Program-made: the position numbers | Shown: in pieces, positions 32,201-41,200 of the stretch | How positions within the stretch are numbered: position 1 is the stretch's first letter | How the letters are laid out: each line of letters begins with the position of its first letter | Assembly: GCF_057098645.1 (NCBI RefSeq) | Contig: NZ_CM169472.1 | Length of the DNA stretch: 64,000 bases | Direction: 5' to 3' (one strand)

Positions 32201-35200
32201 GTTGAGGTCGGCAAGCGTAAAGCGTCCTTCCCAGTTTGTTTCATAGTCCTCGCGCGGGAAGTCGCCCGGCGATGCGCCTTTTTCCAGTGCGGCCTTCACC
32301 TTGTGCGCGTAGGCAAGATTTTTCTCGCACATCGGTGCCGCAGGAATGTACATCACGTTGCCCCAGCCCTGTTGATTTTCAACGGGGGCAACGGAATGGA
32401 TGACGTCGCAGTGCCACCAGACGGAGTCTCCGGCTTCGAGTTGTGGAATGCTGGTTAACGCCTCAATCAACAGTGGATGCCATTGCTCTGATACCGGCAA
32501 TACTCTTCCGGGCGCTACGCCGCACAGTTCATCCTCCGGCACATCATCAAGCAGCGGACGTAACAGTACGTACGCCATGGCTTCAGGAATGGGCACGACG
32601 TGCAGCAACCCCTGACCAGGCAGCATATCAGAGAGCGCTGTCCAGCCCTGGAATGTCCGAAACACGGAACATTTGGTGGTGTTGTCCACCGTGTACTCTT
32701 CAACTTCCGTACGATGTGCCGCATGCCAGGGATCATATTGCGCCAGATTGCCATTAAAGACGTTGGCGAAAACGCGCTGATACGCTGGAAGCAGCCAGCG
32801 TTCCAGTGCCCCGGAGTCGGTATGCGCTCCAAGACCTTTGGAGGTCGTTCCGGGCGGACGGCGGCGGATACGGTCAGGGTAGATGACGCTCACATCCGGG
32901 TTAAACCATTGCTTTCCATCACTTTCAAATGTCCACAGACGATTGAGAAACGACTGCGCATTCGCCATTTCTTCACTCTGGCGAGCCTGCATTTGCGCCT
33001 GCGACCAGTAGATGGGGTAAATCTCGGGACGTGAAGCGCTGAGCGTCCCGAAGAAATTATCGCCGGGGCCTTTGTAGACCTCGTCAAAGCGGTTGCGGTC
33101 CAGATAGTCCAGCATCGACTGATCCCAGCCTAGCGCTTGTTCGCGGGGGAAATGGCCTTTTATCACCGCACAACCGCGACGTTTAATCTGTTCGCGCTGC
33201 TCTGCAGTAACATGACCTGCTTTGATATCGGCATAAGACAGCACCGGCCAGACGGCATCGCCCTGTGCTTTGAGTGCGTTGATTTCAGCCACTCGCGTGG
33301 CAATGTCATCGCTTAGCTGATTAAAGATCTGCTGGACGTCGCCAAGCTGCGCCCGCAGCGCGTGCTTCATCTGACGGATAGCTGCTTTGTGATCGGCAGG
33401 CAATGTGTCGCTGGTAAAAGTAGAAGCCATAACCACCTCGCATTAACTTTCATTCGAAACTATGATGATTTGCATGTGACAATATAAGTTACAAATAAGT
33501 TAATGCAAGTTTAATGATTTGATGTGATGTACAGGATGTAAAAAGAAGGGAAAACCGGAGCGCATGGCTCCGGTAGAGAGGTCAGCTGTTAAAAGGGGAT
33601 GTGTTATCCAGCACAGCCTGAATCACATTCAGCGCGCCTTCATGATTATTATCATCGGTAGCGTAACGGGCGATTTGTTTAATGTTTTCCGCAGCATTGC
33701 CCATCGCAAAGGAATAACGCGCCATTTTCAGCATCTCCGCATCGTTACCGCTGTCGCCAATCGCTACCACATTTTGCGGTGACAGATCCCAGCGTTTCAG
33801 TAACCGCGAAATACCGTTTGCTTTATGTAGACCGGGAATAATCAGGTCGATAAAGCCAAAACCACTGGTGACGGGTTTCATAATGCCATCCAGCGCTATG
33901 TGCAGTTTGTCGATCACTAACGGGATTTGTTCATCCGGCAGGTTGAGCGAAAACTTGAACAGTACGTCGTCAATTTCCTGATAATCTTTTACAGGTTTCA
34001 GGCGATGGTAGTGTTTTGCCATCAGTGCGACGAATGCTTCGGGGGCATTTTCGCTGACATATGCACTTTGCAGACCGCAGGCGACAAAATTGAGTTGCTT
34101 ATCTTTTAGCAACTCGCCAATAACAATCCGCGATTCATGTCGGGTCAGTTCGCCGTGGAACAGTTGCTTGCCATGTTCGTAAACCAGTGCGCCGTTTTCC
34201 GCGACAAAAGAGATCTCATCCTTTAGCTCAGGAAAGAACGAAATAAGCTGGTAATACTGATTACCGCTGGCGACAACGAACTTAATGCCGCGCTTTTTCA
34301 GTTCCTGATATTGCGCCATAAAACGTGGTTGGTTGTACGTTTTGGCGTCGTTAAGAAAAGTACCGTCCATGTCTGTGACGATAACTTTTACGCTCATAGG
34401 TGTGCTCCTGGCTCGAAAATGAAACCGTAACAGTGTAATAACAATGTGACGCAGAGCACAAATTATATTTCGAATGAAAGTGAGAGTGAAATTGATGGTG
34501 TGAATGATTTAGCCCGGCGACGTCTCCGCCGGGCTGAGGGGATTACAGCATATGTTCGGTACGGGCGATGATATCGTCCTGAGCGTCTGGAGAGAGCGCG
34601 GTGAAGAAGGCGGAATAACCCGCGACACGCACTACCAGATCGCGATACTGATCGGGATGTTTTTTCGCATCCAGCAGCGTTTCGCGGGAAACGATGTTGT
34701 ACTGAATATGCCAGCCTTTATGCACTTCAAAGAAGGTGCGCAGCAGGATCATCAGTTTCTGCTTGTCAGATTCGTTCTCCAGTGTTGCTGGATTCAGTTT
34801 CTGGTTGAGCAACACCCCGCCGAGAATCGCTGCCGTAGGCAGTTTACCCACCGAGCCAATGACCGCAGTAGGGCCAAGATGATCAGTACCGGAAGCCGGG
34901 CTTGCGCCTTCTGCCAGCGGGGTGTGCGCTTTACGTCCGTCCGGCGTTGCCATAGTCTGCGCGCCAAACGGTACGTTAGCGGAGATAGACGACGTACCCG
35001 CGTAATAGTTGCCGCCAACCGGACCACGACCATAGCGCGGGTTATGGTACTGTTTCAGTTCGTCGATATAGGTCTGATAAGCGCGAGCCAGCAGCGTATC
35101 GACGGTATCATCGTCGTTGCCGTACTTAGGTGCGCCGTTAATCAGACGCTGACGCAGTTGCTCGTGCGTCAGGCCGTCGAAGTCATCTGCCAGTGCGGCA

Positions 35201-38200: not shown

Positions 38201-41200
38201 CTGCTGAAGGGATGGTGAATGACGCGCTTAAGCTGCGTTCTATTATTGCGGATATCGTGGTGAAAGTTCCGGTGACCGCCGAGGGGCTGGCAGCGATTAA
38301 GATGTTAAAAGCGGAAGGGATTTCGACGCTGGGAACCGCGGTATATGGCGCGGCACAAGGGCTGCTGTCGGCGCTGGCAGGTGCGGAATATGTTGCGCCT
38401 TACGTTAATCGTATTGATGCTCAGGGCGGTAGCGGTATTCAGACTGTGACCGACTTACACCAGTTATTGAAAATGCATGCGCCGCGTGCGAAAGTGTTAG
38501 CCGCGAGTTTCAAAACCCCGCGTCAGGCGCTGGACTGCTTACTGGCAGGATGTGAATCAATTACTCTGCCACTGGATGTGGCACAACAGATGATTAGCTA
38601 TCCGGCGGTTGATGCCGCTGTGGCGAAGTTTGAGCAGGACTGGCAGGGAGCGTTTGGCAGAACGTCGATTTAACCGGACGTTCTGCATCCTCATAAATTG
38701 CTGATGACGTGGCGGAGTGCCGCGTCTTATCAGGCCTGGAGGTGGCAATTACTGCCCGCACACCTCACACCCCGGATTGCGCATCAGTTTCATTTCGCGA
38801 AACTGGCAGGTCATCGCATCGTACATGACGATTTTCCCGCTGGCCGGTTTACCATAACCTGCCAGCAGTTTGATCGCTTCCATTGCCTGCAACGAACCAA
38901 TTACGCCGATCAACGGTGCCATCACGCCTGCTTCTACGCAGGTTAACGCGTTCTCGCCAAACAAACGGCTAAGGCAGCGATAGCACGGTTCGCCGTCCTG
39001 ATAAGTGAAGACCGTGATTTGACCTTCCATACGAATTGCCGCGCCGGAAACCAGCGGCACCTTCGCGGCAAAACAGCCTGCGTTCAGTTGATTACGTACC
39101 GCAACGTTATCCGTACAGTCGAGCACCAGATCGTGTTCAGCAATCAATGCTGCAAGTTCTGCGTCATCCAGCAGTGCATTGACTGGCGTAATCGCGATAT
39201 GTGGGTTGATCCGCGCCAGGGCGTCACGGGCGGATTCCACCTTCGGTTGCCCGACCGTAGCATCACTGTGCAGCGTCTGGCGTTGCAGATTCGAGAGCGA
39301 AACCGAGTCGAAGTCGAGCAGCGTCAGGTTGCCGACACCGGCGCTTGCCAGATACTGCGAAGCTGCGCAGCCGAGTCCACCGAGGCCGACTACCAGCACA
39401 CGAGAATCTTTTAGCGCCTCCTGACCGTCAAAATCAAAACCGCGCAGAATGATTTGCCGGTTGTAGCGCAGCATCTCCTGATCGCTGAGTTCCGCCATTA
39501 CAGGCCTCCGAACAACGCGTTAAACGGTTCTACTTCCACCCATTCGCCCACTTCCACATTGCCGCGATCGCGTTCCAGTACGATAAAGCAGTTGCCGAGG
39601 CTAAAGGAGCTAAATATATGTGAACCCTGATGTCCAGTGGTCGTCACTTCCAGTTCGCCATCGGCGTTGCGTTGCAGCACGCCGCGCTGGAAATCAAGGC
39701 GACCTGGCGTTTTTTTCAGGCGGGACGCTGTGCGTACGCGCTGGCGCGCGGGCAGGCCGCTGGCGGTGTTACCGCTTAGTTTTGCCAGCAAAGGCTGTAC
39801 CAGTTGATAGAAGGTCAGCGTCGCTGAAACTGGGTTGCCCGGCAGGCCGCAGAACCAGCTATTGCTGAGTTTACCGAACGCGAACGGTTTACCTGGTTTA
39901 ATCGCCAGCTTCCAGAAGGCGATCTCCCCCAGCTCTTCAAGAATCGTTTTGGTGTAATCCGCTTCACCCACTGAAACACCGCCGGAACAGATCACCACAT
40001 CCGCCTGGCTGTCGGCTTCAATAAATGCGGCGCGCAGGGCATGTGGATCGTCGCGGATAATCCCTAAGTTGATTACCTCGCATCCCAACTGTTCTAACAT
40101 CAGGTGTACGGCGAGACGGTTGGTATCGTAGATTTGGCCGTCGCCCAGCGGCTGACCGGGCAACTGGAGTTCATCACCGGTAGAAAAAAGCGCTACACGC
40201 ACTTTACGAATCACCGGAACTTCGGCAATCCCCAGTGAAGCAATTACTGGCAGCTCTGCGGTAGTCAGGCGAGTCCCCGCCGGGAAAACAACCGCACCTG
40301 CAGAGATATCTTCACCGCGACGGCGAATATTTTGCCCGCTACGGACTTCAGCAGTAAAACGCACGCCATTGTCCGTTTGTTCAGTCTGCTCCTGCATCAC
40401 CACCGCTTCGCAGCCTTCCGGCACCGGCGCACCGGTCATAATACGAATGCAGGTACCCGCAGGCCATTCACCATGGTACGGCTGACCGGCAAAGGATTTA
40501 CCGGCAACGGGCAGCGGTTGCCTGGAGGCAATATCGGCTAAACGCACCGCGTAGCCGTCCATTGCGGAGTTATCAAACCCCGGAACATCAAGCGGCGAAA
40601 CGACATCGCTCGCCAGAATACGACCAAAACACTGTACCAGTGGCAGCGTTTCCTGGGCGGTCAGTGGGGTGACGCGAGAAAGCATCTCATTAAGCGCGGT
40701 GTCGAGCGACATCAATCCGGTGGTAAATTCCATGAAAACACTCCTGCGGAGGCAAAATCGAATTTGCCTATTATGTCAGAAAAACGCCACAGACTGTATG
40801 CCACCTCGGGCGTAGCGCTGGGTCCTGCCTTTACATGCCATATCCATCTTTCTATATTCAAAAATTGAATGAGTAATTCATAAAAATTCTGATATTTATA
40901 GCAAAAGTGGCGAGCCACCCTTAATGGACGAATACTATGGGCAAAGCAGTCATTGCAATTCATGGTGGCGCAGGTGCAATTAGCCGCGCGCAGATGAGTC
41001 TGCAACAGGAAATACGCTACATTGAGGCGCTGTCTGCCATTGTTGAAACCGGACAGCAAATGCTCGAAGCGGGCGAAAGCGCGCTGGATGTGGTGACAGA
41101 AGCGGTGCGCTTGCTGGAAGAGTGTCCGCTCTTTAACGCCGGAATTGGCGCCGTCTTTACGCGTGATGAAACGCATGAACTGGATGCCTGCGTGATGGAT

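Follow-up and report, generated by a model that had tools for sequence, protein, structure and literature searches.

The ybiYW-fsaA module of Escherichia coli, a very probable glycyl radical enzyme route for the fermentation of 1,5-anhydroglucitol with proposed YciT/FNR regulation

Glycyl radical enzymes (GREs) that act on phosphorylated anhydro-sugars have been described in Escherichia coli by Ma et al. (J Am Chem Soc 2024;146:26187), whose work is cited here through a 2025 review (PMC12441222). According to that review, 1,5-anhydroglucitol and 1,5-anhydromannitol are phosphorylated by phosphotransferase systems, YbiW cleaves 1,5-anhydroglucitol-6-phosphate (AG6P) to 1-deoxyfructose-6-phosphate, PflD cleaves 1,5-anhydromannitol-6-phosphate to the same product, and E. 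coli and many gut bacteria thereby grow on 1,5-anhydroglucitol under strict anoxia. Here we describe the ybiW locus in a stretch of 64,000 nucleotides (the window) from NCBI RefSeq assembly GCF_057098645.1, contig NZ_CM169472.1, in which ybiW and its neighbour ybiY lie between the sugar phosphatase gene ybiV and fsaA, the gene of a fructose-6-phosphate aldolase (FSA). It is very probable that this module is the one by which E. coli ferments 1,5-anhydro-D-glucitol, with regulation by YciT and FNR as proposed below.

The window is E. coli chromosome. Of 5426 complete E. coli genomes, 5425 match the 6.5 kb around the module with an identity of at least 90 %, and the best match (99.9 %) is to O145:H28-type strains. 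The module is core E. coli DNA; its genes are real, intact and conserved, and a chance pattern is ruled out. An earlier reading of the window made from its letters alone (the sequence-only reading) had given the order ybiV, ybiW, ybiY and fsaA over positions 33582-38673, and the same layout was obtained from a list of open reading frames (ORFs) and from the RefSeq annotation of the best-matching genome. The start of fsaA is put at a GTG (37939) by the mechanical ORF list and at an ATG (38011) by the RefSeq annotation. The four genes are:

33582-34397, minus strand: ybiV (supH), 271 amino acids, Cof-type HAD-IIB sugar phosphatase
34543-36975, minus strand: ybiW, 810 amino acids, glycyl radical enzyme with pyruvate formate-lyase (PFL)-like and Gly_radical domains
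36981-37880, minus strand: ybiY, 299 amino acids, radical S-adenosylmethionine (SAM) activase
38011-38673, plus strand: fsaA, 220 amino acids, fructose-6-phosphate aldolase 1, class I, divergent from ybiYW

The radical-glycine motif RVxG[FWY] is present in YbiW as RVAGYSAFF at residues 783-791, with Gly786 as the radical glycine, and the protein matches PF02901 (E 1e-209) and PF01228 (E 9e-33) in Pfam; the sequence-only reading had described it as a PFL-like enzyme with this motif. On TIGR01774 it scores 1408 bits (cut-off 678). By these matches YbiW is placed in the glycyl radical enzyme superfamily. When the PDB was searched by sequence, the entries found were those of YbiW itself ('Probable dehydratase YbiW', 8id7 and 8yjn) and of the paralogue PflD (8yjo). 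The YbiW of the window shares 804 of 810 residues with the 8id7 and 8yjn chains. Among the six differences, three are clustered (E114A, E115A, K117A) and look like engineered crystallisation surface mutations in the deposited chains; at the other three, natural substitutions give K185, L315 and R474 here, where the deposited K-12 protein has E, M and H.

The comparison of active-site residues with characterised GREs, which the sequence-only reading had suggested as a check, was run and gave an eliminase-type pattern, not that of PFL. YbiW has a single catalytic cysteine in the motif GCIE (Cys441-Ile-Glu443). The counterparts of Cys441 are Cys433 in glycerol dehydratase and Cys419 in PflD, and residues C441, E443, H165, H282 and S283 together align with C433, E435, H164, H281 and S282 of glycerol dehydratase. 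Asp447 of glycerol dehydratase, which we take to be a substrate-binding residue, is replaced by Gly456 in YbiW, past a two-residue insertion. YbiW scores under every NCBIfam equivalog cut-off for named glycyl radical enzymes. Judged by these residues and scores it is classed as an eliminase-type enzyme, neither a PFL nor a glycerol dehydratase.

YbiY has the radical SAM motif CSLGCRWC (C25-x3-C29-x2-C32), in agreement with its earlier designation as an activase, and a second motif, CLEGCELC, for an auxiliary cluster (C51/C55/C58). Its score on TIGR02494 (glycyl-radical enzyme activating protein) is 369 bits, with a cut-off of 174, and the gene stops 5 nt ahead of ybiW, as an adjoining gene for a cognate activase would. 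YbiY is the predicted radical SAM activase of YbiW. FSA is known to accept hydroxyacetone, and its physiological role was termed 'enigmatic' in 2020 (PMC7767278). FsaA fits the fructose-6-phosphate aldolase models with Ala129 and Tyr131 kept. Lys85, presumably the Schiff-base lysine, is likewise kept. YbiV, with its nucleophile Asp9 in the motif DMDGT, is the same protein as PDB entries 1rlm and 2hf2, and both flanking enzymes are thus a Cof-type HAD-IIB sugar phosphatase and a fructose-6-phosphate aldolase, as had been claimed. A role for YbiV as a safety-valve phosphatase for AG6P is plausible. In Yersinia pseudotuberculosis (locus L002, 7098-7996) the gene calls split ybiY into two ORFs, 135 and 164 amino acids long, with a 4-nt overlap, which suggests a frameshifted, inactive activase beside an intact ybiW.

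AG6P is a pyranose ring without an anomeric hydroxyl group, and in 1-deoxyfructose-6-phosphate C1 is a methyl group and C2 a ketone. In the proposed pathway 1,5-anhydroglucitol would enter through a phosphotransferase system as AG6P. YbiY, with SAM and a [4Fe-4S] cluster, would put the radical on Gly786 of YbiW, from where it would move to Cys441. The thiyl radical would abstract the C2 hydrogen of AG6P, and the ketyl-type radical, aided by Glu443, would expel the ring oxygen from C1, eliminating the C1-O5 bond by the kind of 1,2-elimination that diol dehydratase and choline lyase radical enzymes carry out. The carbonyl-stabilised C1 radical would then regain hydrogen to give open-chain 1-deoxyfructose-6-phosphate. 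These hydrogen-abstraction steps are drawn by analogy from knowledge of the family and from the reported substrate and product; by such a route the C2 epimer, the substrate of PflD, would yield the same product as AG6P. FsaA would split 1-deoxyfructose-6-phosphate into glyceraldehyde-3-phosphate, which would pass to glycolysis, and hydroxyacetone, and GldA, encoded elsewhere in the genome, would reduce hydroxyacetone to 1,2-propanediol. The abstract of the 2024 report is said to describe the same cleavage, by FsaA or FsaB, and the same reduction by GldA, and substrate-bound crystal structures are reportedly also given there.

The coupling of the radical enzyme to an FSA-type aldolase is supported by E. 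coli K-12, in which the architecture occurs a second time and gldA-fsaB-ptsA is divergent from frwC-frwB-pflD-pflC-frwD, and by the linkage of fsa with ybiY-ybiW across genera. This linkage is kept in every genus examined, and in Yersinia, Mixta and Brenneria the fsa/ybiY-ybiW trio is kept inside unrelated flanking genes.

The sequence-only reading had seen in the gene neighbourhood a hint of an anaerobic sugar-derivative pathway that joins the radical enzyme and the aldolase, and in this it was right, going by the summary of Ma et al. in PMC12441222. Its statement that the substrate was unassigned is no longer true, as the assignment of AG6P given in the same review is of the kind that the reading itself had named as speaking against it. 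The substrate of YbiW has been known since 2024, and the description 'unknown substrate' is out of date. The annotation has not followed: in RefSeq it is a 'glycyl radical protein', NCBIfam (June 2026) covers YbiW by a subfamily model only and names the PflD equivalog model NF007437 'formate C-acetyltransferase', and most source names for YbiW are generic or formate C-acetyltransferase. A preprint on the ybiY promoter, in a version dated 2026, still gives ybiYW no functional annotation (bioRxiv 10.1101/2025.05.13.653802). As a result of this lag behind the 2024 assignment, automated readers can be expected to go on rediscovering YbiW as unknown.

Regulation of the module appears to be shared with that of its neighbours. 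A 16-bp palindrome, ACTTTCATTCGAAAGT, has three copies in the window at two mismatches or fewer, compared with 0.47 expected, and three or more copies were seen in none of 100 shuffles. The copies and the sites around them are:

32165-33430, minus strand: ybiU, 421 amino acids, DUF1479/Gig2-like
33446-33461, no strand assigned: operator O-U, ACTTTCATTCGAAACT on the plus strand, 15-16 nt upstream of the ybiU start codon
34462-34490, minus strand: ybiV promoter-like site, TTCACT, 17-nt spacer, TATAAT, 10 of 12 matches
34466-34481: operator O-V, ACTTTCATTCGAAATA, overlapping the -10 hexamer of the ybiV promoter-like site
37906-37911, minus strand: TTTAAT, -10-like hexamer of the putative ybiYW promoter, T..AAT kept in a four-genus alignment
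37914-37929, no strand assigned: operator O-Y, ACTTTCATTCGAAAGT, a perfect palindrome between the divergent genes ybiY and fsaA
37934-37947, no strand assigned: FNR-like box TTGACgcacATCAA (minus strand), TTGAC-N4-ATCAA, 4 nt upstream of O-Y, 9 of 10 consensus positions

Counterparts of O-U, with two mismatches at most, are found at a fixed 14-16 nt from the ybiU start in nine other enterobacterial loci, and in Mixta the ybiU operator has one mismatch and lies 50 nt upstream. Counterparts of O-V lie at a fixed 67-70 nt from the ybiV start in eight of nine other loci, with 2-5 mismatches, and this is a weaker copy. In random 176-nt stretches of the window the best operator match typically has 6-7 mismatches. 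The ybiU operator is the best-conserved copy after the one between ybiY and fsaA. Published ChIP-exo (chromatin immunoprecipitation with exonuclease treatment) peaks of YciT lie at ybiV, ybiY and fsaA, the expression of which changes in a yciT deletion (PMC8464067); derepression in a yciT mutant is documented in the literature. A DNA pull-down on the ybiY promoter, which shows activity only under anaerobic conditions, likewise recovered YciT (bioRxiv 10.1101/2025.05.13.653802). The positions of the palindrome agree with this binding of the DeoR-family YciT, and we infer that the palindrome is a YciT-type operator, through which YciT, as a repressor, would hold the ybiYW/fsaA, ybiV and ybiU promoters in common. 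The modules of Yersinia, Mixta and Brenneria have the gene of a YciT orthologue (59-65 % identity) next to them, and the palindrome stands at the same place between fsa and ybiY.

A scan for the exact operator pattern in one genome per species (100,044 species; a sample, not a census) gave at least 120 loci, where about 280 matches would be expected by chance for a 16-mer with one degenerate position in 298 Gb at equal base frequencies. Among the 120 matches listed, 93 lie in unrelated genomes and 27 in enterobacterial loci with module genes, and in 24 of these 27 the operator stands between fsa and ybiY. Three gene orders are seen among the matches listed: fsa divergent from ybiY ybiW ybiV ybiU in Escherichia, Citrobacter, Enterobacter, Kosakonia and Pseudescherichia; fsa divergent from ybiY ybiW yciT in Shimwellia, an order also found in Yersinia; and yciT divergent from fsa alone in Yersinia aldovae. 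Mixta has yciT ybiU fsa divergent from ybiY ybiW, and Brenneria has yciT fsa divergent from ybiY ybiW. At the Y. aldovae locus (L011, 3936-5550) fsa and a divergent yciT orthologue have the operator between them, and the 13.5 kb covered there contain no ybiYW. Six of the 120 matches listed are in Collinsella or other Coriobacteriaceae, at loci without module genes (L015, L042, L050, L057, L061 and L064); the pattern there may belong to some conserved coding sequence or to an unrelated site.

The FNR-like box and the operator are the only conserved blocks in the fsa-ybiY intergenic alignment of four genera, and Yersinia and Brenneria have a perfect TTGAT-N4-ATCAA at the place of the box. If TTTAAT is taken as the -10 hexamer (a predicted start, not a mapped one), the box is centred at -41.5 and the operator spans -30 to -15. 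The class II position of FNR is at -41.5. The authors of the preprint found no activator behind the anaerobic activation of the ybiY promoter (bioRxiv 10.1101/2025.05.13.653802), and the FNR-like box is a candidate that would explain the reported anaerobic induction. The ybiYW promoter would then need FNR, so that the oxygen-sensitive enzyme would be made only when sugar phosphate and anoxia coincide.

Some points weigh against the pathway and its control as put together here. The cleavage by the aldolase, the reduction by GldA and the name given to the pathway are known here at second hand, through the reported abstract and a summary of the 2024 work. The modules of Yersinia, Mixta and Brenneria have no ybiV, which is thus no core part. 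The FNR-like box is not significant alone, with seven matches in the window compared with 2.9 expected, and a literature search returned no paper that links ybiY with FNR. In the reporter-library preprint, YciT is put near -5 and an unidentified activator near -20 relative to the start predicted there (bioRxiv 10.1101/2025.05.13.653802), and the footprint coordinates given in it differ by 15-20 nt from the geometry based on the ybiY start predicted here.

The gene ybiU lies outside the positions covered by the sequence-only reading, yet under the same operator. Fold comparison gave YbiU a confident Fe(II)/2-oxoglutarate dioxygenase fold, the PhyH-type double-stranded beta-helix; permissive Pfam and PDB sequence searches returned nothing past DUF1479, and the dioxygenase link comes only from the fold comparison. 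Each residue of the iron triad H203-x-D205...H345 is kept in at least 90 % of 31 homologues (26-49 % identity to the query), and a literature search found no biochemical report on YbiU. In Mixta, ybiU is located between yciT and fsa. In Siccibacter colletis (locus L066, 4324-6552) ybiV and ybiU form a pair in which ybiU is preceded, at 16 nt, by a perfect operator, and no ybiW, ybiY or fsa was found within the 14.5 kb fetched. Distant YbiU homologues were seen in two contexts, one with a sugar-type ABC transporter and two short-chain dehydrogenases and the other, on a short contig, with aromatic-catabolism genes.

That one operator serves both an oxygen-sensitive enzyme and one that would need oxygen suggests an aerobic counterpart to the former. 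It is conceivable, though rather unlikely, that the YciT regulon has a second, oxygen-dependent arm in which YbiU acts on AG6P when the radical enzyme cannot, with YbiV as a phosphatase safety valve. As an example, by analogy, YbiU could hydroxylate AG6P at C1 to give glucose-6-phosphate directly. No aerobic enzyme metabolising 1,5-anhydroglucitol has been identified according to PMC12441222, and if the proposal were true YbiU would be the aerobic enzyme which, according to that review, a probiotic lowering 1,5-anhydroglucitol needs.

The shared operator also bears on what the module as a whole is for. AG6P might be one, possibly secondary, substrate, and the YciT regulon might serve a broader handling or detoxification of non-metabolisable sugar phosphates in which YbiV and YbiU are equal partners; we give this a low probability. 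The operator common to ybiU and ybiV is in its favour, as are the Siccibacter ybiV-ybiU pair with its perfect operator and no ybiW in the stretch fetched and, in Yersinia enterocolitica, the insertion of ybiYW at the sgrR-sgrS sugar-phosphate stress locus (PMC2760817). However, growth on 1,5-anhydroglucitol has been reported (PMC12441222), and the fsa-ybiYW-yciT core occurs without ybiV or ybiU in Yersinia and Brenneria. A broader role extends the explanation by 1,5-anhydroglucitol fermentation and does not replace it.

With regard to the chemistry of YbiW, it is highly improbable that the enzyme is a B12-independent glycerol/1,2-propanediol dehydratase acting on a small free diol, with sugar genes beside it by coincidence. 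Glycerol dehydratase (1r8w, 549 bits) and diol dehydratase (5i2a) are its closest characterised relatives by sequence, C-x-E, His165 and His282/Ser283 are kept, and the PDB title calls YbiW a probable dehydratase, but the equivalent of Asp447 is Gly456, there are no dha, pdu or microcompartment shell genes nearby, and the conserved partners are an FSA-type aldolase and a DeoR-family regulator, not an aldehyde reductase or dehydrogenase. The effectors of DeoR-family regulators are typically sugar phosphates. A free-diol dehydratase was rejected on Gly456, the gene context and the AG6P assignment. PFL chemistry needs an adjacent Cys-Cys pair. That YbiW is a pyruvate or 2-ketoacid formate-lyase (PflF, 'formate C-acetyltransferase 3') and a spare route from pyruvate to acetyl-CoA and formate is effectively refuted, for although the name lives on in databases (PDB 6xs4, 'Formate C-acetyltransferase', and source names) and both Pfam domains of YbiW are common to PFL, the single cysteine of GCIE has no such pair, the score is 153 bits against the PflB structures (1h16) compared with 549 against glycerol dehydratase, and on the PFL equivalog TIGR01255 it is 163 bits, far under the cut-off of 994. 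The published substrate, AG6P (PMC12441222), speaks against both of these identities.

Other features of the locus concern its transcript ends:

33554-33574, minus strand: terminator-like hairpin from a consensus scan, 8-bp stem with six G-C pairs and a T-rich tail, 8 nt past the ybiV stop
34511-34535, minus strand: 9-bp G+C-rich perfect hairpin, AGCCCGGCG ... CGCCGGGCT, directly past the ybiW stop

The hairpin at 34511-34535 has no T-run and is thus not an intrinsic terminator of the canonical kind; about 20 nt downstream of it comes the ybiV promoter-like site. The hairpin may be a weak terminator or an mRNA 3' stabiliser. An Rfam scan of positions 31500-39500 returned no RNA families. The gene after fsaA is moeB. 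One NCBI protein record (P0009) of 1047 amino acids combines PFL-like, Gly_radical and HAD domains and matches YbiW with 99 % identity across 92 % of the query. This product of one E. coli assembly is probably a ybiW-ybiV fusion that arose by read-through or by a miscall.

The 2024 assignment closed two E. coli puzzles, the orphan radical enzymes YbiW and PflD and the purpose of the fructose-6-phosphate aldolases. There is also a medical side to it, as 1,5-anhydroglucitol is a clinical marker of glycaemia and AG6P causes the neutropenia of glycogen storage disease (GSD) Ib and of G6PC3 deficiency (PMC12441222). Beyond the known substrate, what the locus adds is the YciT operator, defined at the level of sequence and conserved across Enterobacterales, the FNR-like box at ybiYW, and the co-regulated, dioxygenase-like ybiU as a testable lead.

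Compared with the systems described so far, the module is closest to the YbiW/YbiY pair of Ma et al. (8id7, 8yjn), which is the same gene with the same neighbours, and the coupling to an FSA-type aldolase is present here in fsaA, divergent from ybiYW. The 1,5-anhydromannitol-6-phosphate module, PflD/PflC with FsaB, GldA and the Frw phosphotransferase system (8yjo), has the same architecture of radical enzyme, activase and aldolase, with identities of 38 % between YbiW and PflD, 36 % between YbiY and PflC and 70 % between FsaA and FsaB. PflD shares Cys-x-Glu and the radical glycine motif with YbiW, and its product is 1-deoxyfructose-6-phosphate as well, according to PMC12441222. It differs in its substrate, the C2 epimer, and in two positions, where His282 of YbiW is Ser and Gly456 is Asp in PflD. 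The pflD cluster has its own transporter genes and gldA, whereas the ybiW cluster lacks these and has ybiV and ybiU instead.

With the B12-independent glycerol dehydratase of Clostridium butyricum (1r8w) YbiW shares the fold, the relay from glycine to cysteine and the general-base glutamate two residues past the cysteine. The logic of leaving-group expulsion is the same as in propanediol dehydratase, choline trimethylamine (TMA)-lyase, hydroxyproline dehydratase and isethionate sulfite-lyase; expulsion of a leaving group next to a hydroxyl-bearing radical is the established mechanism of 1,2-eliminating GREs. The leaving group of YbiW, however, is the ring ether oxygen of a phosphorylated anhydro-sugar with six carbons, so that the ring is opened, whereas the known eliminases release water, an amine or sulfite. 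A precedent for the oxygen-dependent route speculated for YbiU is the C1-hydroxylation of 1,5-anhydromannitol to mannose in Sinorhizobium morelense, although that enzyme is cytochrome-P450-family-like and acts on the unphosphorylated sugar (PMC12441222), and YbiU is of the Fe/2-oxoglutarate type. Mammalian G6PC3/G6PT repair deals with the same dead-end AG6P (PMC12441222) by unrelated proteins, and YbiV could, by analogy, play a G6PC3-like role. The mammalian system only dephosphorylates AG6P, whereas E. coli catabolises it for energy.

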